Made by a program: the position numbers and the translations under genes. Under the pieces are notes generated by a model. The model searched no databases and was not told where the DNA came from. It saw nothing but the letters and a program-made list of their open reading frames with translations. Below are positions 5,524-18,275 of a stretch of DNA of 64,000 bases, in pieces (the stretch's first letter is position 1; each line of letters opens with the position of its first letter). The stretch covers positions 491,302-555,301 of the forward strand of contig JBFWNU010000003.1 in assembly GCA_050250895.1 (NCBI GenBank). The letters are read 5' to 3'. Source of the stretch: Vulcanimicrobiota bacterium (GTDB taxonomy: Bacteria > Vulcanimicrobiota > Xenobia > Xenobiales > JADMJV01).

Positions 5524-5682
5524 CTTCGCGCCGCGCCGCTGGGCCGACTCAGCGAGCGTCGGCCCGGTCGCGGCTTGACGGGAGCAACGAGAACGAGCGT
5601 TCAGGAAGCCTGACTCGAGAGGCCGGCGGCGTTCTCGTCGCTCCCTGCCGGCGCTTCGCGCCGCGCCGCTGGGCCGACTCAG
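5523..5682. repeat. 30-bp direct repeat pair enclosing hairpins (REP/BIME-like) between convergent genes
   Basis: GCTTCGCGCCGCGCCGCTGGGCCGACTCAG at 5523-5552 and 5653-5682; inverted repeat 5580-5595/5630-5645. Confidence 0.75.
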
Positions 5683-8600
5683 TCCTGGATGGCGAGGCCG
5701 AAGTCGCCTACCGAGACCCAGTCTTCTTGCTGTTCCAGTTCGACTTTCTCGGGCTTGACCTGAGGGTTCTTCTTGAGCCACTGCTCGTAGTCAGCCCGCA
5801 GGCGGTGGACCTCGGCGATGGGGTCTTCCGCCCCGAGCCGGGCGGTGGGTAGGAAGAGGGCGTCTCTGCCGGCATGGGCCAGTCGGCTCAGCACCTCTCG
5901 GGCCAGGTCGGAGTCGCGATGATGCTTGAGGGCGGCGTCGCCGATGAGTAGCTCGAAGGGCATCAGTGCGGCCAGAGGGTCGCCGCAGGCGCTGGCGGCT
6001 GCTTGAAGCGGCCAGGGGCCGGCGTGCTTGGCCCGCGTCGTTTGCAACCAGTCGGCTAGCTGGACGCAGGACTGGGAGTCGAGGGTTCGCAGTTCGGCCT
6101 CGACCGCTTCGTAGACCGGCTCGTGCAGGCTCTGGTCGAGATAAGACAGGGCACCCAGCCCGGCCTGAAGCAAGAGGCTGGCGGGCGGTATCTCTTGCTT
6201 GAACCGAGTAAGCTGACCGGAGATGCCCATCACGGCTGCGGCCAGCCTGTCGTCGGGCAGCTGACTGGCGGCCAGCCGGTGGAGGAGCCCTCCCAGGGGG
6301 CCGGGCAGGCCTGCCGCGGTGGCTTTGGTGACCGGTCGGGGTTGGAGCTGCACCAGGTTCGAGGCGGCTCGCAGCAGGTGGGGGCTCGGGGCGGGCTGGC
6401 TCGGCTCGTTATAGGCGGCCAGGGCGCTCTGCAGGTTGGCCGCCGGCAGGGGTGACGTGTCGAACAACTCGAGCAGGTGGACCAGCGGCTCTTCCTGGCC
6501 CGGGGCCAGGCTGGCCAGGCCCGACCGGAGTGCGCTGGCCGGAGCCAAGGTCAGCATTTGCTGGCACAGTTTCAACCCGACCGGTAGCCGGCCTTGCTCG
6601 GGCTCGGGCCTGACCCAGCGCATGGCCGAGAAGGCGGCCCGAAGTTCGGTCGTGTTCGAGGGGTCGAGAGCCCGCAAGAAGCGCACCACCTGGGCCGCGT
6701 CCGGGTCGGCCGGGTCTTGAGCCGGCAGGAAACGCTCTAACATCGCTTGAGCCTGTTCGGGGCTGAAAGCGTCTTGACTGGCCGCCGAACAAAGGGCCAG
6801 CGAGGCCGGCAGGCCGGCAAACTTCTGACGGACCTCCCAGAAGGCGAGGGCCTGGGTGACGCGCTGCGCGGCGGTGGTCTCGTCGAGCTGAAGCTGGAAC
6901 TCGAGGAAGTCGGCCAGGGCCAGGCTGTCGGGGCCGTCGCTGTGGCTGCGCAGGCTGGCGACAGCCCCCTCGATGGCGGCGTTCTTGTTGGGCCCCGGCG
7001 TATAACCCAGGCTCTCGCGTAGCAGCGCGGCCGCGGCCGGCAAAGGGTCGTTGGCCGCCAATGTGTAGACGGCGCGTTGAAATGCCGCCGTGCGATAATC
7101 GCCGTCGGCGGCCGGCAAGGCCGAGAGGTGTCGAAGGAATTCGACCCCCTGGGCAAGCCTGGGTGAGAGGCCCTGGTCGCTCACCCGCGCCGTGACTTTG
7201 CCGACCCACTCCGCCGGAGCCACCTGGCCGTTTCGGGTCACACCGTCCCGGGCCAACAACAGAACCGGGGGCAAAGGACTCTTCTGTTCTAGTTGCTGTT
7301 GATAGCCGGTCAGGCAAAGAGGCAAGAATTCGCTGGGGTTAGCTCCCAGTTCGGCCCAGTCTGCAATGAGGCCCAGCAGGCCCGCACTTTCTGGCCGGTC
7401 GGCCTGGGCCAGGGGAAGCGCCAGTTCGAGCACCCTGGTCTGGTTTTCGGGGGTGAGATAGCCGATTAAACGGCTGGCCGCCATTACCACCGACGAGAGA
7501 CCGTCGGGGGGAGGGGCGGCCAGGCTTTCGATGGCCGTTCGTAGACCATATTGCAGGTTGGGCTCGCTTTCGAGTCCGTCCAACTGGGCCACGGCTCCCA
7601 GAAAACGGGCCACGGGGTGGCTGTCAGGCGCTATCGGAACGGCCTGGACGTGCTTTAACGCCAGCTCGGGTGGGGCTCCGTAGACGGCGCCGTGGCAGGC
7701 CCACAGCGCCGGGGGTAGGCCGGACGGCTGCAGCTTGAGTTGGTTCCAGGAGCCAACCATGTTGGACAGCACCGAACCCAATCTCTGGGGCTCTTCGAAA
7801 TCCGTGACCTGGCTCAGATAGGCTCCCAGGGCCGCGTCCTCTGGCGAGACCGGATGAGTCCTCATCAAGGCGGCCAGCTCTCGCGCAAAGTCCCGCTGGG
7901 CGGCGGGTGGGATGTAATTCAGGCAACCGGTCGAGGCGGCCAGGGCTGGTCCCACGGTGGCGCCGTCGAGCCGAGCCAGGCCATAGTAGAGGGCGTTAAA
8001 GGCCGTATCGGGGGTCTGGCAAACCTCGACGATCTGGCCGAGCAAAGCCATCAATTGGCTTTGGGACGGATTGTCGTCGGTAGGTAGGGAGTCGATAGCT
8101 TGCTTGAGCTTGGCTCGCTCGAGCTGACCCAGGGTGGCTTTGAATACGGATGTCGCCACCGACGTGCCAGCCAATCTGCCTCGCGACGAAAAGCCGCTGA
8201 GGGCCCCACGCAGCAGGGTCTCGTGCTGACCGGGCATCGCAAACTCTAGCAGGCCGCGCAGGCTGAGCAAGAACTGCTCGATCTCGCCTTTGGGTTGTCG
8301 AGCCAGGGCGTGTTCCAGGGCCAACTGGACTACCTGGGCCTGGTCCTCGATCGGCAACTGCCTGGCCAGGCCAGCAGCCAGATGGAGCACGGCCGGCAGG
8401 CTCTGGTCGGTGGCGTAGGCCTGCTGCAGTTGAGTCAAGCCATAGTAGGCCGCCCGCCCCAAGCTGTCTCGGGCCGGCTGGGATAGAGCCAGGTTTCCCA
8501 CGGCCTTGAGGAAGTCCGCCGACGGATCGCCCTGCGAGCCCTCGACCGCTAGCGCCAGCATCTCCCCCGCGCGCTCTGGTGGTAAGGCACAAAGCGAACC

Positions 8601-10721
8601 GCGGGCCATCCGCAGGGTGGGCGGCAGGCTGGCCGAGGCCGGATCCGCGTAGCCCTCGATCGAGGGACGAATCAGGCTCTCGCAGTTGGGAAGGTCCTTG
8701 AGGTGTTCGAGATAGCCAACCGCCGCCAGGGTGTCCGCCTCGTTCGTGTCCTGGCGAATCGTGGCGAGCACCCGTCCGGCCAGCTCGCTCCGTTGCTCTT
8801 GGGCGCAACTCTGCAGTGCTGTCTTGAGAATCTTGAAACCGGGGTGCACAGCATCGGGGGCGACCAGCGCGTTGAGCATCGAGCCAAATAGATAGCCTGA
8901 GTCAAAGTCCTGTTCGGCCACGGCTTCCAGGACACGATAGGCATAAGTCTGTTCTTTGGGTCGAGATTGGGCCTGACCCGCGACCAGGGTCTTGACCAGT
9001 TCGCGCTGGTTGCCGGCCGGCACCTGGCTTAGACCATTCCGCAAAAGAGTAAGCTCGAGGCCGAGGGGACCGGCTTTTTGGGGAAGGAGTTCGCGGGTAG
9101 CCCTGACGAGACCGGCCGGGCTGGCCAGCGGGGCGGCCAGTTTGTAAAATCGCACTGCTTCGGCGGGAAGGTGCGGGGTCAGCGCCTCGACCAGGGAGCT
9201 CAGTCCTTTGGCTGCCTCGTCTTGCGACAACCCGGCCACCGCGGCATTGAGGATCTCGCCCGGCGTCATCTGGTAGCCGTAGCGAAGGTTGCTGCCGAGG
9301 CTCGCCACGGCCCGCCCTGCGTCGGGCAAGCCGGCCAGGACCCTCAGCGCTTCGAGGAACGGTTCCTTAGTCGGGTGCTCGGCAAGCACAGGAGCCAGCA
9401 GAGCCTGGTAGTCGTTGGGAGAGCCGCCCACCGCGCCCAGCGCCATCAGGACGGAATCGGCCAGGCTGATTTTGTGCGCTGGCTTCGAGGCTAGCATGGT
9501 AAAGGCCGCGAGCACGGCGTCGGACGTCTTAAGGTGAGGCAGATAGGCGAAGCGCGGGTCCGAGGGTTGCGAGGCCCCCATCAATTGGATGGCCCGTTCT
9601 TGAAGGGGCGCCGGGATGGCCGGCAAGGTCTTGATCAAGCTGCTCAGCAAGTCGCCGCCCTGCCAGCCCTCGGCCATGGGCTGCATGCATCGGGCCAGTT
9701 GGGCGGGCTCGAGGTTTAAAGGCTCGAGGCTCGCCAACAGCCGACTGCGAGGGTCGCTACCCAGGCTTTTGAGGAAAGGTCGAGGGTCAGGGGTCAGGCT
9801 GGCCGCGCGAGCGTAGCCGGTCACATCCTGGATGGTCTCGAGTTCCTTGAGGCAGGCGAGTGGCTGCTTGACGTCAAGCTCGACCAGATGTTCTACATAG
9901 GCGCCTTGCCAGGAGTTGAGTCGGGTCCGGTCGGCCTGGAGCAGGGCCAGCAGACCGGGGCCGAAGGCGTGCCCGGCGGGAAGTCCACACACCAGGCTAG
10001 TCAGAGTGGCGTCGACGGGGGCCCCCGCTTTCTCGAGCAGGCGCGCGGCCGAGACCATTCGGTCGTAGTCGAGCTGCTCAGCCAGACCAGCCTTTACCAG
10101 GCTGGCCACCGGACGCTGGTCTTGCTTGAGTTCTTCCAGGGTTAACTCGGCTCCCGAGCGGATCAGGGGGTCTTTGAGTTGGGTGGGGGCCGCCAGGGCC
10201 ATGGCCGCGGCCAGCGTGGCCGTGGCGGCCGGTCCGCTCAGGCCGGGGGCAGCCGCTCCTAACACGGTCTTGGCCGTCTCGAGATTGCCATAGGGCAGGC
10301 TGGCCGCCTGGCGCACCACCTGGTGGGGCGAGGCTTCGGCGCTGTTCAAGAGGCGCTCGGCTTCCAGCAACCGCTCGCGCAAGACCTTGGGGTCGCGGCC
10401 GGCCGGGTCGCCGGGAAAGACTTTGAGCGAGCGGGGTTCGCCTTTCGGGTTGAAGGCCAGGTTCTGCTTGCCGTCGCTGGCCCAAACGGTGTCCTCTTTG
10501 AGAAAGAACCAGCCGCGCCAGCCGGAGGCCCGTCCCCGACCCTGACGATAGCGTTCGTGCTCGTCGGCCCCGAGCACCACCAGGTCCTGGCCGTCCTGGA
10601 CCAGGGCGTGTTCGGGGTTGCCCTCCTCGGCGATGGCGAAGGGAAGACAATTCAACCGCTCCGGGTTGCGGGTCACCTGACCTTGCAGAGAGCGATGGCG
10701 TTCAAAGGACAGATCGGCCAC
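5679..10721 (-). CDS. Very large Ala/Leu-rich alpha-helical hypothetical protein (1680 aa)
   Basis: Long uninterrupted ORF with degenerate helical repeats; no catalytic motif recognised. Confidence 0.8.
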   Translation of the reverse strand: MADLSFERHRSLQGQVTRNPERLNCLPFAIAEEGNPEHALVQDGQDLVVLGADEHERYRQGRGRASGWRGWFFLKEDTVWASDGKQNLAFNPKGEPRSLKVFPGDPAGRDPKVLRERLLEAERLLNSAEASPHQVVRQAASLPYGNLETAKTVLGAAAPGLSGPAATATLAAAMALAAPTQLKDPLIRSGAELTLEELKQDQRPVASLVKAGLAEQLDYDRMVSAARLLEKAGAPVDATLTSLVCGLPAGHAFGPGLLALLQADRTRLNSWQGAYVEHLVELDVKQPLACLKELETIQDVTGYARAASLTPDPRPFLKSLGSDPRSRLLASLEPLNLEPAQLARCMQPMAEGWQGGDLLSSLIKTLPAIPAPLQERAIQLMGASQPSDPRFAYLPHLKTSDAVLAAFTMLASKPAHKISLADSVLMALGAVGGSPNDYQALLAPVLAEHPTKEPFLEALRVLAGLPDAGRAVASLGSNLRYGYQMTPGEILNAAVAGLSQDEAAKGLSSLVEALTPHLPAEAVRFYKLAAPLASPAGLVRATRELLPQKAGPLGLELTLLRNGLSQVPAGNQRELVKTLVAGQAQSRPKEQTYAYRVLEAVAEQDFDSGYLFGSMLNALVAPDAVHPGFKILKTALQSCAQEQRSELAGRVLATIRQDTNEADTLAAVGYLEHLKDLPNCESLIRPSIEGYADPASASLPPTLRMARGSLCALPPERAGEMLALAVEGSQGDPSADFLKAVGNLALSQPARDSLGRAAYYGLTQLQQAYATDQSLPAVLHLAAGLARQLPIEDQAQVVQLALEHALARQPKGEIEQFLLSLRGLLEFAMPGQHETLLRGALSGFSSRGRLAGTSVATSVFKATLGQLERAKLKQAIDSLPTDDNPSQSQLMALLGQIVEVCQTPDTAFNALYYGLARLDGATVGPALAASTGCLNYIPPAAQRDFARELAALMRTHPVSPEDAALGAYLSQVTDFEEPQRLGSVLSNMVGSWNQLKLQPSGLPPALWACHGAVYGAPPELALKHVQAVPIAPDSHPVARFLGAVAQLDGLESEPNLQYGLRTAIESLAAPPPDGLSSVVMAASRLIGYLTPENQTRVLELALPLAQADRPESAGLLGLIADWAELGANPSEFLPLCLTGYQQQLEQKSPLPPVLLLARDGVTRNGQVAPAEWVGKVTARVSDQGLSPRLAQGVEFLRHLSALPAADGDYRTAAFQRAVYTLAANDPLPAAAALLRESLGYTPGPNKNAAIEGAVASLRSHSDGPDSLALADFLEFQLQLDETTAAQRVTQALAFWEVRQKFAGLPASLALCSAASQDAFSPEQAQAMLERFLPAQDPADPDAAQVVRFLRALDPSNTTELRAAFSAMRWVRPEPEQGRLPVGLKLCQQMLTLAPASALRSGLASLAPGQEEPLVHLLELFDTSPLPAANLQSALAAYNEPSQPAPSPHLLRAASNLVQLQPRPVTKATAAGLPGPLGGLLHRLAASQLPDDRLAAAVMGISGQLTRFKQEIPPASLLLQAGLGALSYLDQSLHEPVYEAVEAELRTLDSQSCVQLADWLQTTRAKHAGPWPLQAAASACGDPLAALMPFELLIGDAALKHHRDSDLAREVLSRLAHAGRDALFLPTARLGAEDPIAEVHRLRADYEQWLKKNPQVKPEKVELEQQEDWVSVGDFGLAIQD

Positions 10722-10768
10722 GGCCCCAGCTTAGGGGCCGTGACTGAAAGACCGCTGAAAGTTTGGCC

Positions 10769-12106
10769 TCAGGCCGCCGCAGGACCGGCCAGGATGGCCG
10801 GGTCGGTGTGGGATTGTCGCATCAGCTCGGTAATCCAGTAGAGACGCTCGTCGAGGTCGTGCCACTTGGGCACGTCGGTGCCGCTCAGATCGTCGGGGTT
10901 GGATTGCTTGGAGCCGTCGTCCTGAATGCGGATCAGGTTGTCCCTGAGTTCCTGGTTGCCGATTTCATCGAATTCGTCCACCAGGTTACCCAGGGTCATC
11001 GGCTGGGGAATGTCGTCGCCAGCTTTGAGTTCCTGGCCGTCGAGTTCGAACGCCACCTGCGAGTTGGCGAGATCTTGAACCGGGTCGCCAGGCACGACGG
11101 TGTCGACGGCCGAGGATAGGAATCCGGTCAGGCCACCCTGTTTGTGGGGATCAAACGCCCTGTCGATTTCGTCGTCGAGGCGGATCTGCTCGTGCTCGGC
11201 CACATAGATGTTGCCGTTGAGCGTGAGTTCTTGCTTCTTGCGCACGTCGGTCTCGAACTTGGCGTCGTAGTAATTGCGGAAGGCGTCTTCCAGGGGACTG
11301 TGGTCTTGATTCTCCGGATCCGAGCGCCGAAAATCTTGCTCGTCGACCCAGCGTTGGAAAGCCTCGGGGTCCTTTGCCTCGGCATCGCCGAAAGTGTCGA
11401 TGAAACTCTGGAAGTGGGGGGCGATCTCCGAGAAGACTTCCTGATTTCCGTCGGCCAGGGCTTCGCGCGACTGGCCCGGAGTGTCGACATTGATAGGCCC
11501 GGGCAGGTCAACGTCTTCTTCACCCCGGATGCCACCACCGACGGCGTTGGAGGCGTGAGCGGCGTAGCTCAGCCAGTTGTTGCCGGCACCAGGGCCGAGC
11601 ACCTCGTCGAATTCCTGACCCAGGCGGGTGTATTCTTCGGTGATCTGGCGGTTGCGGCTGCCGGTATCGAGGTCCTCCTCCTGACGAGCGATGTCCTCGA
11701 TGCGTTCGGCGTCTTCACTCTGGGGCTCGGGCCCGCGGTGGCCCCAGCTGAAAATATTCTTGATTTTGTCGAGGAAGCCCTGAGCCGCTTCCGAGGCCTC
11801 GTTGGTGCGCTCGCCGGTGGCAGAACTGGTTTCGACGCGGTCGACGGGAGCGCTGCTTTCGGCTCGGGCCGTCTCGGCCTGGCGCTCGGCGGCGTCGGCC
11901 GAGATCGGACCCCGACCCGCCGGGGTGGTTTCGGCGCGATGCTCGGCGGCGTCGGCGCTGGTGGGCGAGCGGTCGGAGCGGGCCGGATGGCTGGCCCGGT
12001 GAGGCCCCCTGGACTCGGGATGCCGCGCCGGTCTCGGCGTTCGGGTGCGCTGGTTTCCGCGGTAGGGAGGGGTGGTGCTGCTGCGGTCCGTTCTCGTGAT
12101 GCTCAT
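10769..12106 (-). CDS. Hypothetical protein (disordered N-terminus, acidic globular C-terminal domain)
   Basis: 445-aa ORF; N-terminal SADAAE repeats; NW..YA..AS..VG and GNQEVFSEI segments look like a conserved domain. Confidence 0.7.
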   Translation of the reverse strand: MSITRTDRSSTTPPYRGNQRTRTPRPARHPESRGPHRASHPARSDRSPTSADAAEHRAETTPAGRGPISADAAERQAETARAESSAPVDRVETSSATGERTNEASEAAQGFLDKIKNIFSWGHRGPEPQSEDAERIEDIARQEEDLDTGSRNRQITEEYTRLGQEFDEVLGPGAGNNWLSYAAHASNAVGGGIRGEEDVDLPGPINVDTPGQSREALADGNQEVFSEIAPHFQSFIDTFGDAEAKDPEAFQRWVDEQDFRRSDPENQDHSPLEDAFRNYYDAKFETDVRKKQELTLNGNIYVAEHEQIRLDDEIDRAFDPHKQGGLTGFLSSAVDTVVPGDPVQDLANSQVAFELDGQELKAGDDIPQPMTLGNLVDEFDEIGNQELRDNLIRIQDDGSKQSNPDDLSGTDVPKWHDLDERLYWITELMRQSHTDPAILAGPAAA

Positions 12107-12830: not shown

Positions 12831-13360
12831 CCGCTTAGCGCGGCCTCAGCTCGTGGACCTGAGGTCGACCCTCGTCGGATTGGCGGACCAGCTGGGCGCC
12901 CTGGCTGCTGGTCGAGGAGCTGAAAGTCACGCTCACACTGAGTAACATTGGGTGTTTCGGCAGGTTTTTCATGGCTTGAGCCTACCAGGCACCTCTGTGG
13001 CAGCTCTCAAACCGACCCCTGTTTTGTGAACGTCAGGTTACCGGTTTGTGACAAGTTTGCTCGCTCCCGCCTCGAGGGGGCCTTGGGAAGTGGCTGGCGA
13101 CGATTGCGGCGACGGTGAAGTGACCCCGCCGGTGGTTCTTTTCTCGCTGGGAGGTCGCTGAGCCGTCGCTCCCGAGCTTATCAGCGACGGTCACGCCCTT
13201 CTTGGAAATCTCGTTTCTTAAAGAAAACTTGCACACACAAAAAACCTAGGCAATAAATCAATATATGTCTAATCGTATACCATAGATCGGCTATCAGTTC
13301 TTCAGGGTTCGAGGAGGAAACTGTTGACCGAAGAATCTCTCAGGAGAGAGGAATCCCATC

Positions 13361-13704
13361 ATGTCGCTGGGCAGAACGATCTCCGACCTGCGGAAGAAGA
13401 AGGGGCTCACCCAGGTTGAGCTTGCAGAGAAACTAGGCGTTCACCAATCTCACATCACTCGATGGGAGAGTGATCGAGTGCGGCCTCGCCAAAGTACCCT
13501 GGCCAACCTCGCCGAAGTGCTGGATTGTTCGATTGAGGAACTCCTGGTGGGCGGAAAAGAAGCGTTGGCGTCAACATCGAAGACCCAGAGCTTGTCGAGT
13601 TGCTATCGGACATTCCGAAGCTCGAAGAGGAAGAGGTCGGAGCCCTGAAGATTCTTTTGAAAGGTCTGATGTCGAGAATCCGTGTCAGAGAAGCCCTCCA
13701 ATAG
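13361..13704 (+). pseudogene. XRE-family HTH regulator with apparent 1-nt deletion near 13560
   Basis: LRKKKGLTQVELAEKLGVHQSHITRWE HTH; typical C-terminus VNIEDPELVELLSDIPKL...REALQ* lies in the -1 frame, ending at 13704. Confidence 0.7.
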
Positions 13705-13897
13705 AATCGCCAAGAAGGAAGTCCTTCGAGTCATCCAGGCATTGCCACAGAACGAGCTCTCGCTCGAAGAGATTCAGGACGCCCTGGAGGAAGCCGTTCT
13801 CCGGGCCAAGGTAGATCAAGGCCTTGCCGAACTCGACAGGGGGGACTGGGTGCCCCATGACCAGGCGCTCGAAGAGCTGCGGAAGTGGCGGAGATAA
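13682..13897 (+). CDS. Putative type II antitoxin (ParE/RelE partner)
   Basis: 71 aa, KVDQGLAELDRGDWVPHDQA motif, overlaps toxin start. Confidence 0.75.
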   Translation: MSEKPSNRIAKKEVLRVIQALPQNELSLEEIQDALEEAVLRAKVDQGLAELDRGDWVPHDQALEELRKWRR

Positions 13898-14173
13898 GGT
13901 GGGCCTCTAGTTCATTGGTCGACTTGCGTGCGACCCTGGGCTACTTGGCCGAGAAAGACCCCCTGGCGGCAGAACGTTACTCGTTCGACTTCGAGAAAGC
14001 TGTGGAGCGTCTCAGAGATTGGCCCTGGAGTGGCCACCCTTTGCTCGACTACCCGAAAGAAGTCCGACAGCTTCTGGTCGCTCCATACCGGATCGTCTAC
14101 CGGGTCGCCGTCTGATGTGGTGGAGATTGTTCGCATCCTACACTTCCGGCGGCCAGTCCCAGAAGATCTCTAG
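13885..14173 (+). pseudogene. RelE/ParE family toxin, frameshifted near 14110
   Basis: IRW...DL..I..Y pattern and PYRIVYRV, then VEIVRILHFRR in another frame ending at TAG 14173. Confidence 0.75.
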
Positions 14174-14180
14174 CCGGTGT

Positions 14181-14430
14181 TAGCAGTCCGCTAGACGGCG
14201 GAAACGTAGCCGGGGCGCCGGCTCGTCCTTAACCTTAAGGCGCGATAGCCGGCGCCGCGCGAGGTGGCCGTGACTGCAACGGAGGATTCAGGTCGGCGGG
14301 ACTGGACCGGGCGGCGGGCGCGCCTCTCGCACCACGTTGAACGCGATAGAGGCGCGCGCGAAAGGGACGCGCATGAAGGCCGGCAGAAACCACCCTACCG
14401 AGGACCGCTTTTGTTTCTGCCGGCCGTGGC
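14181..14430 (+). ncRNA. Structured non-coding element, copy A (candidate novel ncRNA or MITE-like)
   Basis: Stems 14214-14223/14247-14256 and 14318-14330/14343-14357; conserved GACTGCAACGGAG and loop ACCACGTTGAAC shared with copy B. Confidence 0.55.
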
Positions 14431-14669
14431 CCCCGGAGGGGGACGGGGGGCGAACCTGCCCCTGACCAGCTCGGCCGCGGCCCAACCACACTGTCTGACA
14501 AGAGTGCTCGCGAAATTTCCGCCGGCGGCGATGGGGGCTGCGCCTTCGCTTTTGGCCACCAGGCGCAGCCCCACTGAGCCGCCGGCCCCAGCCCGCCAAC
14601 GGCCACGACGGCCGCCCTTCACCGACAATTTGAAAGGCCCAAGCCCCGGCTAAGCCGAGTCTTGGGCCT

Positions 14670-14862
14670 GGGTCTTTGCGCTACCGTCTCGCGCGCAGTT
14701 CTATCAGGTTCGACGTGGTCTGAGAACTGCGCCCGAGCGCCTTTCAGCGACGTTCACGCCCTTCTCCGTTGCAGTCCTTGCTCACGTCCCGCGGCGCTGG
14801 CGAGCGCCCTTTGGGCAAAGGGCGCGCCAGCGCCACACGTTGTCGGTTAATGCGAATTGCTA
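14670..14862 (-). ncRNA. Structured non-coding element, copy B
   Basis: Same architecture as copy A with compensatory stem substitutions; loop ACCACGTCGAAC. Confidence 0.55.
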
Positions 14863-15492
14863 GAATTCAATCCAAGGACCAGGCCGTTGTTCTGGCTTGT
14901 TGTCGGTGGGGGCTTGCCGCAGGCCCTCCTTATCCTCGGGAAACCAGATTCTCTTGACGTGAAGAGCTTCCTTATTCCGAGCATCTTCAGCCAAGATGCG
15001 TTTTAGCTTGGCAAATCCTGGCTTCGAATCACCTCGCATCAGGTCAATTTGAGCGCTATAACACAGCGCATGATGTCGCTCATAGGACTCGAGCGTGAGT
15101 TCGGTTGCGGCGCTATCGAGATAGGTCTGAGCTTGATCCCAGAACAGAAACCGCCAGAGTACGATTCCCAGACAGTATCTCCTTCGGGCGCGGCTCAGGG
15201 GAAGGCCAAGCTCTCGCGCATCGACTTGTTCATTGAGCATTGCGAAAGCAACCTGGCACTTGCGAAGTTGTTCGATCTCTGTCGCACGATCCGCTTCATG
15301 TTGAAGGGCTGCCAATACACCTGCTGCAGAGTCATCTAATTCAAATCGCTCGAGTTGACAAATCCAATCCGGTAAAGACATATCCAGATCAACTGTGCCC
15401 GTGATCGGCTGACCGACCGATTCATTGCCGGTTTCCGTTGCTGGCGAAATCCCGGTCAAAAGAACTAACCATATGATTACAGAACTGCTCAA
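14860..15492 (-). CDS. Putative Rhs immunity protein (hydrophobic N-terminus, TPR-like)
   Basis: Starts immediately after the Rhs stop; lower GC than surroundings. Confidence 0.6.
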   Translation of the reverse strand: MSSSVIIWLVLLTGISPATETGNESVGQPITGTVDLDMSLPDWICQLERFELDDSAAGVLAALQHEADRATEIEQLRKCQVAFAMLNEQVDARELGLPLSRARRRYCLGIVLWRFLFWDQAQTYLDSAATELTLESYERHHALCYSAQIDLMRGDSKPGFAKLKRILAEDARNKEALHVKRIWFPEDKEGLRQAPTDNKPEQRPGPWIEF

Positions 15493-16857
15493 CTACGCCC
15501 CCCAAAAGTCCGCTAACCTTGGGACGCCAACGCCGTCGCCGAGGAGAACCCCCTCTTCAACATCGCCGCACGAATTTTTGCAGCGACACTTGCCAACAAG
15601 CGTAAGCCCTTCCCTCTCGACCTTGCTGAGCGCCAAACTTACCTGGAATCTAAGCCCTGCCGATGCACCATCAAGGACTGGCTCAGCCCTAAAACCCTGC
15701 GCGTCCTGTGTAACGGTATAAACTAGTGGCAAAAGAAACTTCACGCCATTGACACTACTTGGATCGAATTTGATTCCAAGTTCTTCACGGGGATTCCTCA
15801 AGAGGGATGGGTCAATCTCGACAGCTGAAGGATAGATTCTAATTGTCCCGACCGCGCGCGTGAATGTCGCATTTGGACCACCCAAATCTATCGCCCAGTC
15901 TGCTAGTTGGTCATAGCCGTCCGGGCACAAACAGTTGCCTTTGAAGAAGATTCGACCACCAAATCCACGCGCCTCACGACCATTGATAGTTCCGGCGCTT
16001 GGTGGCAGGTCGAAGTGATCCTGAATTGGGATGTAACCAAGTCCGCGAGCATCCACTGAGTTCACCGGATTTCCACCAACGTACCCATATGGCCCCAACC
16101 CGCCTGCGAAACCAATCGGGTCGCGGTTCAAGAACCGGCCCAGCCTGGCATCGTAGTGCCTCGCCCGCATATACAGCAGGTTGGTGAGTGCCGAATCGTC
16201 ATGCACGCCAAGCCCACCGACAAAGGTCTTCGGGCTCGACCCCGAGCCAGTCTTTGTCTGCTCACCAAACTCGAGATACTCGTAGGCAGCAACTTCGTCA
16301 CCGCTGCCGTCGACCACGATTCGAACCGAAGTTAAGCCGTCGGTCAGCAGGTAGAAAAAGTCGCCACCGCTCTCGAAGCCCATCAACTGGTGGCCCATCA
16401 GGTAGTTGAACTCCACCGGCGAGCCCACGGCCGGCGTCTCCACCTCGTTCAGTGTCGGCAAGCCAGAGTAGAAGCTCTCGGTCACCGTCTCGTCGTCGAG
16501 GATCTTCGCTTTGCGGATGCCGCCGGCATCATAGGTGTGCAGCACCTTGGTGTCGGCGGGACTGAAGGCCACCCGAATCAGGTTGTCCTGGTCGTCCCAA
16601 CGATAGGCGATGGTGTCGCTGGTGGCCGCGTCGGTCCTCAGCGTCATGTTACCGTCGTCGTCGTAGGCAAAGGTCTCCACCGATGTCGTGAAATCTCCTT
16701 CGTCCCGAGAATGGAAGGTCCCGGAGAAGATCTCCTGGAGTGGATTCGCGTCGTCATCGTCGTAAAGGTAGCTCACGCTAGCTCCATGGTCGTCCATGAA
16801 CTTGCGGTTGTCGGACTCATCGTATTGATAAGTTCGCTGTGCAGACGGGGTAGCCCC
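15493..16857 (-). CDS. N-terminally truncated (orphan) RHS repeat-associated core protein with unknown C-terminal toxin domain
   Basis: YD repeats, LLYMRARHYDARLGRFLNRDPIG, PVNSVDARGL boundary; frame stays open upstream of ATG 16797 to 16857. Confidence 0.85.
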   Translation of the reverse strand, partial: GATPSAQRTYQYDESDNRKFMDDHGASVSYLYDDDDANPLQEIFSGTFHSRDEGDFTTSVETFAYDDDGNMTLRTDAATSDTIAYRWDDQDNLIRVAFSPADTKVLHTYDAGGIRKAKILDDETVTESFYSGLPTLNEVETPAVGSPVEFNYLMGHQLMGFESGGDFFYLLTDGLTSVRIVVDGSGDEVAAYEYLEFGEQTKTGSGSSPKTFVGGLGVHDDSALTNLLYMRARHYDARLGRFLNRDPIGFAGGLGPYGYVGGNPVNSVDARGLGYIPIQDHFDLPPSAGTINGREARGFGGRIFFKGNCLCPDGYDQLADWAIDLGGPNATFTRAVGTIRIYPSAVEIDPSLLRNPREELGIKFDPSSVNGVKFLLPLVYTVTQDAQGFRAEPVLDGASAGLRFQVSLALSKVEREGLTLVGKCRCKNSCGDVEEGVLLGDGVGVPRLADFWGA

Positions 16858-17029: not shown

Positions 17030-18095
17030 TCAGCTCTCGAACTGGCGACCATCGCGGTCCCGGAAAGTCAGGTCATCGGGAGCCGTTCCTTCGATGAAGA
17101 GAAGGCCGTCGTGGACGTTGCGGTGGCAGCCCGTGCAGAGGAAGATCAGGTTGGCCGGCACCGTCAGGCCGCCCAGGGCGAAGAATCGGATATGGTGGGA
17201 TTGTAGCCAGATATGGTTGGGGCAGTCGGGCGTCTGGCAGCAGTAGCAGTCGCGAATCTTGAGGGCCTCGGTCTGGGCAGGAGTGAGCCCACGGGCGTCA
17301 GGGTTGAATTTCAGCCGCGGCGAGAGCTCCCAGTGCGCGTTGGCCCGGCAAGCCAACTGCACTGAGGAGTTGCCGGGACACGCCTCCCCATCGACTGCCG
17401 TCGTGGCCATGAAGAAATCGTCCCCCGGGGGACGAATGCCCAGCTCCTGGGCCAACTCATGCGCCCTCTGAATCGGGCCGGCCAGTTTGCGCTGGCGCGA
17501 AGCCGCCACCGCGGCCGCTCTGGCCCGCATCGCCTCGAGGTCCTTTTCGGTGACCGGGGCGGTCTGCAAACGCTGGGCCAGCACGAAGGCCAAGGCTTCT
17601 TTCAGCTCTACCTTGCGCCCCAGCTCGAGGGAAAGCGAATGTAGAACCAACTTCAGCAGTTCAGCCGTCTCGGGGTCGAGGTGGAGGGTGATTTCTTCGC
17701 TTTCGATCTGGGTGGGCTGCAGTTCGCCGGGCAAGCCTCCTTTGGGAGTGGCGGCCACCAGTTGGCGAATCACCGAGGTGGAGTAACTCGAAGCCAGCTC
17801 GAGCCAGAGCTGCTCGGTTGTGGGGGTGGCTTTACTGGCGATCTCCCGCAGCTTGGCCCAACCGACGTCGCCCCGCTCGGCGGCCGCGGTGAGTTGGGGC
17901 AGGCCTTCGAGTTGGCGGGCCACGCGGCGACAGGCATTGGCCTCTTTCTTGGTCACTCCCAGCAGGCGGATAGCATAGTGGATGGGGCCACTGAGCCAAA
18001 GTCTTGATAGCGGCCGGTGGCTTGCAGGGCCAGCAAGCAGCGACCCAGGATGATGCGATGAATCACCAGGCCGGTGGCAGAGCGCCGGGCTCTTG
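17030..18095 (-). pseudogene. DUF222-like HNH endonuclease, frameshifted near 17993 and 5'-truncated
   Basis: RDCYCCQTPDC...HHIRFFALGGLT..NL..LC..CHRNVH HNH motif; upstream ILGRCLLAL..YQDFG segment in an adjacent frame. Confidence 0.8.
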
Positions 18096-18275
18096 GGTTC
18101 GACGTGGTCTGGGGGCGTGGCCGAGCGGTCGCTCCCGAGCGCGTTTGAGTCACGCCCACCCCTTCGCCCTTACAGTCCTTGCTCACGTCCCTGGCCGCGC
18201 GAGGCGCCGGCTCTTCCCGGTAACGAGGCCACCGCTCAACTGGCGGCGTCTCGGTTGATTTGCTTTTGCCAGCAG
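18096..18275 (-). ncRNA. Structured non-coding element, 5' half-copy C fused to HNH gene
   Basis: Identical blocks with copy B: 18096-18111=14707-14722 (16 nt), 18173-18191=14772-14790 (19 nt). Confidence 0.5.

Follow-up and report, generated by a model that had tools for sequence, protein, structure and literature searches.

The window analysed here is a stretch of 64,000 nucleotides (C3:491302-555301; the contigs carry the prefix C and coordinates without prefix are those of the window) from the 9.5-Mb assembly, in 17 contigs, of a Vulcanimicrobiota bacterium. Two convergent copies of a structured element, copy A and copy B, lie in it between a ParE-type toxin gene on the plus strand and an orphan RHS fragment with its following open reading frame (ORF) on the minus strand. 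The locus contains the following genes and features.

5679-12106, minus strand: two large ORFs of 1680 and 445 aa to the left of the locus, with no Pfam match at E 0.01
13361-13648, plus strand: HTH_3 (Xre-type) gene upstream of the ParDE pair
13682-13897, plus strand: 71-aa ORF, the likely antitoxin of the ParE module, clustering with ORFs before ParE at two other A copies and without a Pfam match
13885-14173, plus strand: frameshifted ParE toxin gene (PF05016, E 4.8e-8; 13885-14115 correspond to positions 1-71 of 89 of ParE_toxin)
14201-14834, no strand assigned: A-spacer-B (A-S-B) unit, recurring at C17:1252-1885 (98.9%), C11:120432-121066 (98.1%) and C2:469595-470233 (93.8%)
14203-14374, plus strand: copy A, A subfamily (match of covariance model R1 at C3:505504-505675, 160.6 bits; also found by BLAST and by its folds), with stem 1 at 14214-14256, the linker GACTGCAACGGAG at 14272-14284 and stem 2 at 14318-14357 with its loop at 14331-14342
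14378-14425, plus strand: GC-rich 13-bp hairpin just past copy A, common to A-type copies (-25.7 kcal/mol, z -3.38)
14426-14635, no strand assigned: spacer S, from BLAST of 13300-15800 against the genome
14636-14668, minus strand: GC-rich hairpin just past copy B, found at B copies with the S tail (-27.5 kcal/mol, z -4.02)
14676-14841, minus strand: copy B, B1 subfamily (model R1 match at C3:505977-506142, 192.4 bits; also supported by its fold), with stem 1 at 14793-14834, the linker at 14764-14776 and stem 2 at 14693-14732 with its loop at 14708-14719
14860-15492, minus strand: 210-aa ORF taken from the ORF list, without a Pfam match, in the immunity position directly past the RHS toxin tip
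15493-16797, minus strand: orphan RHS fragment, a core end with DPIGFAGG followed by a variable C-terminal tip (weak RHS_repeat match, E 0.0042; member of the family by tblastn)
17030-18186, minus strand: remnant of an HNH2-type gene, frameshifted and without its first ~23 codons (Pfam HNH; tblastn against the intact copy on C7, 88%, residues 57-371)
18082-18208, minus strand: degenerate partial copy 'C' (BLAST, 69% over B positions 55-170; partial model R1 match, 34.5 bits)

The ParE gene carries a frameshift at about 14100-14116: its N-terminal 76 codons match the toxin, and the typical C-terminal end lies in another frame, which stops at 14173. Judged by their position, the RHS tip and the 210-aa ORF are a putative toxin and its putative immunity protein. 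A related metagenome contig has a 1-nt deletion at 13921, in the ParE gene. The HTH_3 gene varies among related strains, with a 7-nt insertion behind 13570 in one metagenome contig and a jump over 13347-13549 in another. The initial annotation had each copy start right after a toxin-module stop codon, which holds approximately: the ParE frame ends 28 nt before the core of copy A, and the stop codon of the ORF at 14860-15492 precedes copy B by 15-25 nt.

In copies A and B the element measures about 170 nt and comprises two bulged hairpins, a 13-nt linker and a 12-nt loop. Both hairpins follow one design, an upper helix, a 2-nt bulge on the 3' side and a 9-bp base, and stem 2 is closed by the 12-nt loop ACCACGTYGAAC, which reads ACCACGTTGAAC in copy A (14331-14342, plus strand) and ACCACGTCGAAC in copy B (14708-14719, minus strand). 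When at most one mismatch is allowed, the loop motif matches five times in the window, against 0.47 matches expected, and none of 100 shuffles reaches five. The stem folds of the two copies have z values from -1.75 to -3.97. That two convergent copies share order and fold, as originally proposed, is real, since they are 69% identical in BLAST (E 1.4e-7), align over their full length and form the same two hairpins; the 13-mer said to be identical in both is found exactly at 14272-14284 on the plus strand and at 14764-14776 on the minus strand. Compensatory change in the stems, with pairing, bulge and loop kept, was also correctly recognised. Among the 34 consensus pairs compared between A and B, 24 are the same, nine are changed on both sides and still pair, and one is changed on one side and still pairs; no pair is broken by a double change and none by a one-sided change. 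If 28% of the positions changed independently, about 14 one-sided and about three double changes would be expected, versus the one and nine observed. Nine double changes without a single break and so few one-sided changes indicate that the fold is under selection. Two further details of the initial annotation did not hold up: the shared start TAGCAGTCCGC / TAGCAATTCGC lies outside the limits of the family and is not found in other copies, and the third stem (GCGA..GCGCA) is weak and absent from the consensus fold.

Instead of two or three copies, as first assumed, the genome harbours a family. The proposed covariance-model search, carried out together with BLAST over the whole genome, yielded fragments and 33 model R1 matches of at least 120 bits, the model having been built on an alignment (A2) of 32 full copies that are themselves among the 33. 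The 33rd match is a copy split by an IS110-family element. The supposed third copy, C, is indeed a related sequence on the minus strand, though just a fragment. Three subfamilies can be distinguished, A with eight full copies and one truncated copy, B1 and B2, the B copies amounting to 24 full ones; identity is about 82-99% inside a subfamily and about 65-71% between A and B. RNAalifold predicts 34 pairs on A2 with double changes at 11 of them, 96.3% of the cells pair versus 28-48% after the partners are slid by 1-3 columns, and none of 500 shuffles reaches the observed covariation score, all figures that are inflated by related rows and reflect in effect two splits, A versus B and B1 versus B2. 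The sense strand folds better in 26 of the 32 copies, by 6.8 kcal/mol in the mean, and the tallies of wobble pairs versus mismatches in the stems favour neither strand. A candidate pairing between linker and loop (CAACG with CGUYG, 5 bp) is Watson-Crick in 9 of the 32 copies; the antisense strand fits it in 10 copies, those of the commonest B1 form with G.U and not A.C, and the sense strand in five. Such a pseudoknot was considered equivocal, the remaining copies being mixed or broken and the strand preference opposite between the subfamilies.

The edges of the element are sharp. Homology among the copies starts at 14201 and ends at 14834-14845 in window coordinates, copies open with CTGAAACG(C/T), and the sequence upstream is not common to them, such that about 25 unrelated upstream genes all meet the element at one base, at CTGAAACG. 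Copy B is without this usual leader, and altogether three of the four B copies within A-S-B units have lost it, with breakpoints at the base of stem 1. B2 copies look chimeric, their 5' arm being mismatched to their 3' arm. Directly past the element a strong GC-rich hairpin follows in each tail class. There is no T tract after the hairpin at 14378-14425; the hairpin at 14636-14668 is followed on the B strand by TTTCAAATT, and the B tail classes in general continue on the sense strand past the hairpin with TTTCAAATT or TTTGA/TTCAA. A plain intrinsic terminator was rejected as a description of the element: the following hairpins are strong but their T tracts are short or absent, and a consensus terminator scan calls no terminator either at the element or at these hairpins. 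The IS110-family element mentioned above (C10:4646-6197) encodes a 370-aa DEDD-type transposase and sits in stem 2 of a B2 copy, after CTGATAG; since it is single-copy, its presence in the copy at C10:4509 tells little.

All copies are located in RHS or toxin-antitoxin loci, where the gene calls near the copies come partly from a crude codon-score script. Each of the nine A copies is preceded by co-oriented small ORFs, which are toxin-antitoxin-like at six: by Pfam, ParE stands before three (the window, C2:469595 and C11:120432), UPF0175 with or without DUF3368 before two and PIN before one. An HTH protein, an FKBP with unknown ORFs and nothing recognisable are found at one copy each. A B copy lies opposite eight of the nine A copies, the remaining one being placed in tandem behind another A; this makes the pair in the window a recurrent junction of an RHS array end against a toxin-antitoxin cassette. 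The flanking genes of the four A-S-B loci show no DNA alignment in BLAST against the genome, and a part of the unit, 14460-14671, is also found just upstream of HNH2 genes (C7:432720-432904 and C2:283819-284135).

B copies go with RHS cassettes. Using the end of the RHS core as query, tblastn detects 23 core ends in the genome, and at 19 of them a B copy in the same orientation follows after 939-1215 nt, a gap that offers space for a variable toxin tip and one further ORF in the position of an immunity gene. The four core ends without a full copy are two contig ends, one with a partial copy and one with a degenerate copy. With the query used, no RHS core end is detected upstream of five of the 24 full B copies, and Pfam recognises nothing in the ORFs that precede these five. 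Solitary B copies in direct arrays are far commoner than inverted pairs, and direct B...B repeats about 2.5-3.1 kb apart flank orphan cassettes, which consist, for example at C1:368-374 kb, of a core fragment up to a DPxG-type motif, a variable tip and a following ORF, as in orphan arrays.

The slot ahead of the next orphan RHS cassette is occupied by DUF222-like HNH genes. They encode two types of protein of about 370 aa, HNH1 and HNH2, with about 10 copies or remnants each, which resemble each other at about 36% and carry an HNH domain at the C-terminus. Both are distant relatives of DUF222-HNH proteins, and one relative of the HNH protein is named Candidatus Eremiobacteraeota; Pfam DUF222 does not match them, Pfam recognises the HNH domain alone, and in a PDB profile search the matches to solved structures (IscB, McrA, intron maturase) are confined to this domain. 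Rab matches in the same search were discarded as noise. HNH1 is arranged tail to tail with a B copy at six of about 10 genes, where 63-82 nt separate the tblastn match from the B copy and the stop codon is about 95 nt away from it. A repeated 1.6-kb HNH1 unit is bounded on one side by the edge of the next orphan RHS fragment and on the other by the CTGAAACG edge of the element. HNH2 is found in sense orientation past B and spacer S, directly ahead of an orphan RHS fragment. In the window the order is partial copy C, HNH2 remnant, RHS fragment, 210-aa ORF and copy B; partial copy C abuts or is fused to the truncated 5' end of the HNH2 remnant, and it looks as if a deletion took half an element, the spacer and the start of the gene. 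In some B2 arrays tyrosine-recombinase genes or fragments fill the same slot before the next orphan RHS fragment (C16:440-2148, C2:8375-8512, C16:5267-5404 and C4:516271-516587), and a genome search found tyrosine recombinases not to be consistently adjacent to the element. The integron integrase model TIGR02249 gives 19 weak matches in the genome, the best with 70.2 bits versus a cut-off of 265.

Is the element known from elsewhere? Rfam 15 at gathering thresholds has no match in the whole window, in agreement with the initial annotation, which recognised no RNA family; at E values up to 10 the region 14100-14950 yields nine chance hairpin matches to miRNA models with 11.6-19.6 bits versus gathering thresholds of 40-197. 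BLAST finds the element in none of the 15 other genomes of the family, and model R1, with 70 candidates per genome scored, in none of the 39 other genomes of the order. Exact-motif matches in two large contig collections (one genome and two metagenome loci) were attributed to chance, as the motif alone matches, with 9.4-12.7 bits. Near-identical pieces of the stretch occur in metagenomes of activated sludge and wastewater, with shares of 0.09-0.18 of the stretch in the 20 runs listed, and metagenome contigs break at 14201 and 14834 and then differ (three sludge or wastewater DNA runs and one RNA-library run). One RNA-library contig spans 185 nt of upstream flank and the element, DNA carry-over being possible. 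The literature searched contained no description of such an element, which thus far appears to be known from this bacterium alone.

Related genomes seem to have something analogous. The DNA past RHS core ends was compared in four of them, G012 being represented by one region only and so allowing no within-genome comparison. In G005 a module of about 155-170 nt with a long hairpin and a classic terminator is present in 4 of 15 regions (L145, L149, L150 and L155), in G009 200-400 nt are common to all three regions (L178-L180), and in G010 (L168 and L174) 271 nt at 72% are common to one pair of regions, and two more pairs have short stretches of 45 and 54 nt in common. These modules lie 0.9-1.5 kb past RHS core ends and none of them resembles A or B. 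From their occurrence in G005, G009 and G010 it seems that a structured conserved 3' flank after RHS cassettes is common in the family and differs in sequence from lineage to lineage.

What could be the function of such an element? The copies form a genuine repeat family, specific to this genome and under structural constraint, which marks the 3' ends of toxin cassettes, with sharp edges, strict placement and orientation, a hairpin directly behind it and selection on both bulged hairpins. The reading preferred here, held with slightly less than even confidence, is that of a cassette-end module: a structured 3' UTR, co-transcribed, which provides downstream homology for cassette exchange as well. 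According to this proposal B copies would close cassettes of RHS toxin tip and immunity gene, A copies would close small toxin-antitoxin cassettes, and the convergent pair in the window would arise where the ParDE cassette meets the orphan RHS cassette tail to tail. The element would be transcribed with the upstream genes, and its hairpins together with the conserved loop and linker could bind a factor or shield the end of the mRNA before the closing hairpin. The high identity among copies might at the same time provide the homology arm on the downstream side, the RHS core fragment being the one upstream, and through these arms RecA-type recombination could swap cassettes, insert them or loop them out. 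By cutting DNA, the HNH genes between cassettes may raise the exchange rate.

Several observations bear on this reading. Fixed orientation, the place between a stop codon and a strong hairpin and the absence of a conserved upstream promoter point to a 3' UTR. The lack of any conserved sequence before the 5' edge leaves no shared promoter and makes an independent ncRNA gene unlikely; if the element acts as RNA, it is a 3' UTR. The initial suggestion of a novel ncRNA or a folded DNA element under structural selection was right about the selection. Further support comes from the placement behind RHS core ends and small co-oriented ORFs, from the meeting of unrelated genes with the element at CTGAAACG, from the hairpin in each tail class and from the better folding of the sense strand in 26 of 32 copies, and for a homology arm from the direct B...B repeats around orphan cassettes. 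Conservation of the fold and invariance of loop and linker suggest a job that depends on structure, the 94-99% identity of the A-S-B unit at four loci with unaligned flanks supports a role as homology arm, and the relatives' own structured modules at the same RHS position count in favour of a cassette-end module, to which the RNA-library contig spanning flank and element adds weak support in view of possible DNA carry-over. On the other side, the lack of a terminator call and of a T tract behind the A hairpin counts against a 3' UTR at cassette ends, the neutral wobble tallies and the linker-loop pairing on the antisense strand of the 10 commonest B1 copies speak against a sense-strand RNA, and the five of 24 B copies without an RHS core upstream weaken the cassette-end reading. 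Moreover, plain homologous recombination does not explain how unrelated genes are joined at one base, nor does it need a conserved fold.

In function the element is most like the flanks of Rhs displacement arrays, and also attC or REP elements. Rhs C-terminal displacement arrays are described as a main gene followed by orphan modules, each of a core fragment, a variable tip and a following ORF (PMC2935791), and Jackson et al. (2009) proposed that exchange occurs via homologous recombination through circles (PMC2935791). The arrays of this genome likewise have a main RHS gene, orphan modules and conserved flanks around variable cargo. Compared with the arrays as portrayed in that article, the modules here differ in ending in a structured element of about 170 nt that is kept by compensatory change, in that a related element closes toxin-antitoxin cassettes and in that an HNH gene is placed between modules (PMC2935791). 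A role as homology arm would agree with the circle-and-crossover model, as far as it is laid out there, and extend it (PMC2935791).

The joining of about 25 unrelated genes at one base speaks for a site-specific step and thus for an attC-like recombination site of folded DNA, a reading that we consider unlikely and nevertheless the best placed of the alternatives. The hairpins would form in single-stranded or cruciform DNA, and an enzyme, which would be a tyrosine recombinase or a DUF222-like HNH nuclease making the break, would join cassettes near CTGAAACG or the base of stem 1. Integron attC sites are folded imperfect palindromes with extrahelical bases that form one hairpin, are homogeneous within a genome and follow unrelated, mostly co-oriented cassettes including toxin-antitoxin cassettes; their core sites, RYYYAAC ... 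GTTRRRY, lie at the two ends and close the one long imperfect hairpin. Like attC sites and CALIN clusters, the element follows many unrelated, co-oriented cassettes, with many cassette families ending in the same element and direct repeats flanking them. Leader loss with breakpoints at the base of stem 1 in three of four A-S-B B copies, the chimera-like arms of B2, wobble pairs that favour neither strand and HNH or tyrosine-recombinase genes and fragments in the inter-cassette slot would fit such a site, as would the IS110-family insertion in one copy, given that elements of this family often target palindromic repeats. However, there is no integron integrase IntI (TIGR02249 about 70 bits at best versus 265) and no consistently adjacent recombinase, and at the six loci inspected the relatives' HNH homologues stand without the element. 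Furthermore, the element of about 170 nt has two separate hairpins where attC has one, its 5' edge CTGAAAC has no complement at the 3' end of any tail class so that inverse core sites are missing, and A and B face each other, unlike the units of attC arrays.

Less probable still is that the element belongs with REP, REPIN or MITE sequences, as a selfish or neutral repeat that accumulates in these loci, is carried along by duplication of RHS modules and has hairpins serving only its own spread. REP, BIME and REPIN sequences are genome-specific extragenic palindromes found after genes or between convergent genes, which stabilise upstream mRNA and are targets of IS110-type elements. Our element is similarly multi-copy, genome-specific, extragenic and palindromic and lies after genes and between convergent genes, the A-S-B unit with its inverted arms recurs amid unrelated flanks, and copies decay to fragments. 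It differs from these repeats in having about 35 copies and not hundreds, in being longer and more complex with conserved unpaired parts and in its restriction to toxin loci: the genome-wide intergenic spread of REP or REPIN-RAYT systems is not seen in this genome, where copies occur only in RHS and toxin-antitoxin loci. A RAYT-type gene (Y1 transposase, PF01797) has no match in the genome, while the control was positive in 6 of 14 reference genomes. The inverted arms A and B, 69% identical, might recall a MITE, but the one unit checked, C2:469595-470253, has no flanking direct repeat or target-site duplication, and B is mostly found alone in direct arrays, far less often in inverted pairs. 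Confinement to these loci, an orientation fixed relative to the upstream gene and the lack of target-site duplication and RAYT thus make a selfish repeat unlikely.

A more far-reaching possibility, to which we give only a small chance, is an integrase-free cassette system in which the element is the joining site for both toxin-immunity and toxin-antitoxin cassettes and the DUF222-like HNH protein breaks the DNA. Such a system would resemble an integron or a free-standing homing endonuclease built from other parts. If true, the break by the HNH nuclease would drive capture or homing of cassettes and would supply the missing mechanism of Rhs tip exchange.

Very improbable is an active antisense strand, be it as RNA downstream of HNH1 that acts as 3' UTR or antisense regulator of the toxin cassette or, in the boldest form, as a scaffold resembling a guide RNA, with variable flanking sequence directly at its 3' edge (CGTTTCAG) like that of TnpB omega RNAs: a B copy lies antisense near 6 of about 10 HNH1 genes, the repeated HNH1 unit stops exactly at the CTGAAACG edge, the edge against variable DNA is sharp and the linker-loop pair is G.U rather than A.C on the antisense strand of the 10 commonest B1 copies, but this strand folds worse in 26 of 32 copies, the 5-bp pairing is possibly chance, most copies have no neighbouring HNH1, HNH2 stands on the other side in sense orientation, the HNH genes of relatives occur without the element at the six loci inspected and a strong hairpin separates HNH1 from the element. 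A HEARO or omega RNA finds no match in Rfam, and the neighbouring nuclease has an HNH domain alone, without RuvC, to which its IscB and McrA matches are limited. An antisense or guide-like RNA linked to HNH1 is accordingly poorly supported.

Returning to the cassette-end module, its significance lies in the exchange of toxin tips. In that account of the displacement arrays, tip swapping of RHS and polymorphic toxins is explained by the hypothetical circle-and-crossover model alone (PMC2935791). Cassettes of one genome that share a defined, structurally constrained end element would provide concrete sites for recombination or for control of cassette RNA, and if the fold works as RNA it would be a new 3' UTR motif common to two kinds of toxin systems. 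The host phylum is little studied.

The HNH genes have a distribution of their own. Each of the 15 other genomes of the family has homologues, and at none of six loci inspected, out of 30 homologue loci in these relatives, is the element found beside them. REP13E12 is named as a repetitive element of Mycobacterium tuberculosis (PMC10589994). The neighbouring HNH genes of our element are, as distant relatives of DUF222-HNH proteins that are multi-copy here and in relatives, similar to this DUF222-HNH repeat; they differ from it in their structured partner element, none being described for REP13E12 in that article, and in the lack of a Pfam DUF222 match (PMC10589994). The HNH homologues of G002-G007 (L083-L088) have a common promoter-like box upstream, of the type TTGACA ... 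TAGTCT, and are located in varied non-RHS contexts, which is consistent with a free-standing selfish gene.
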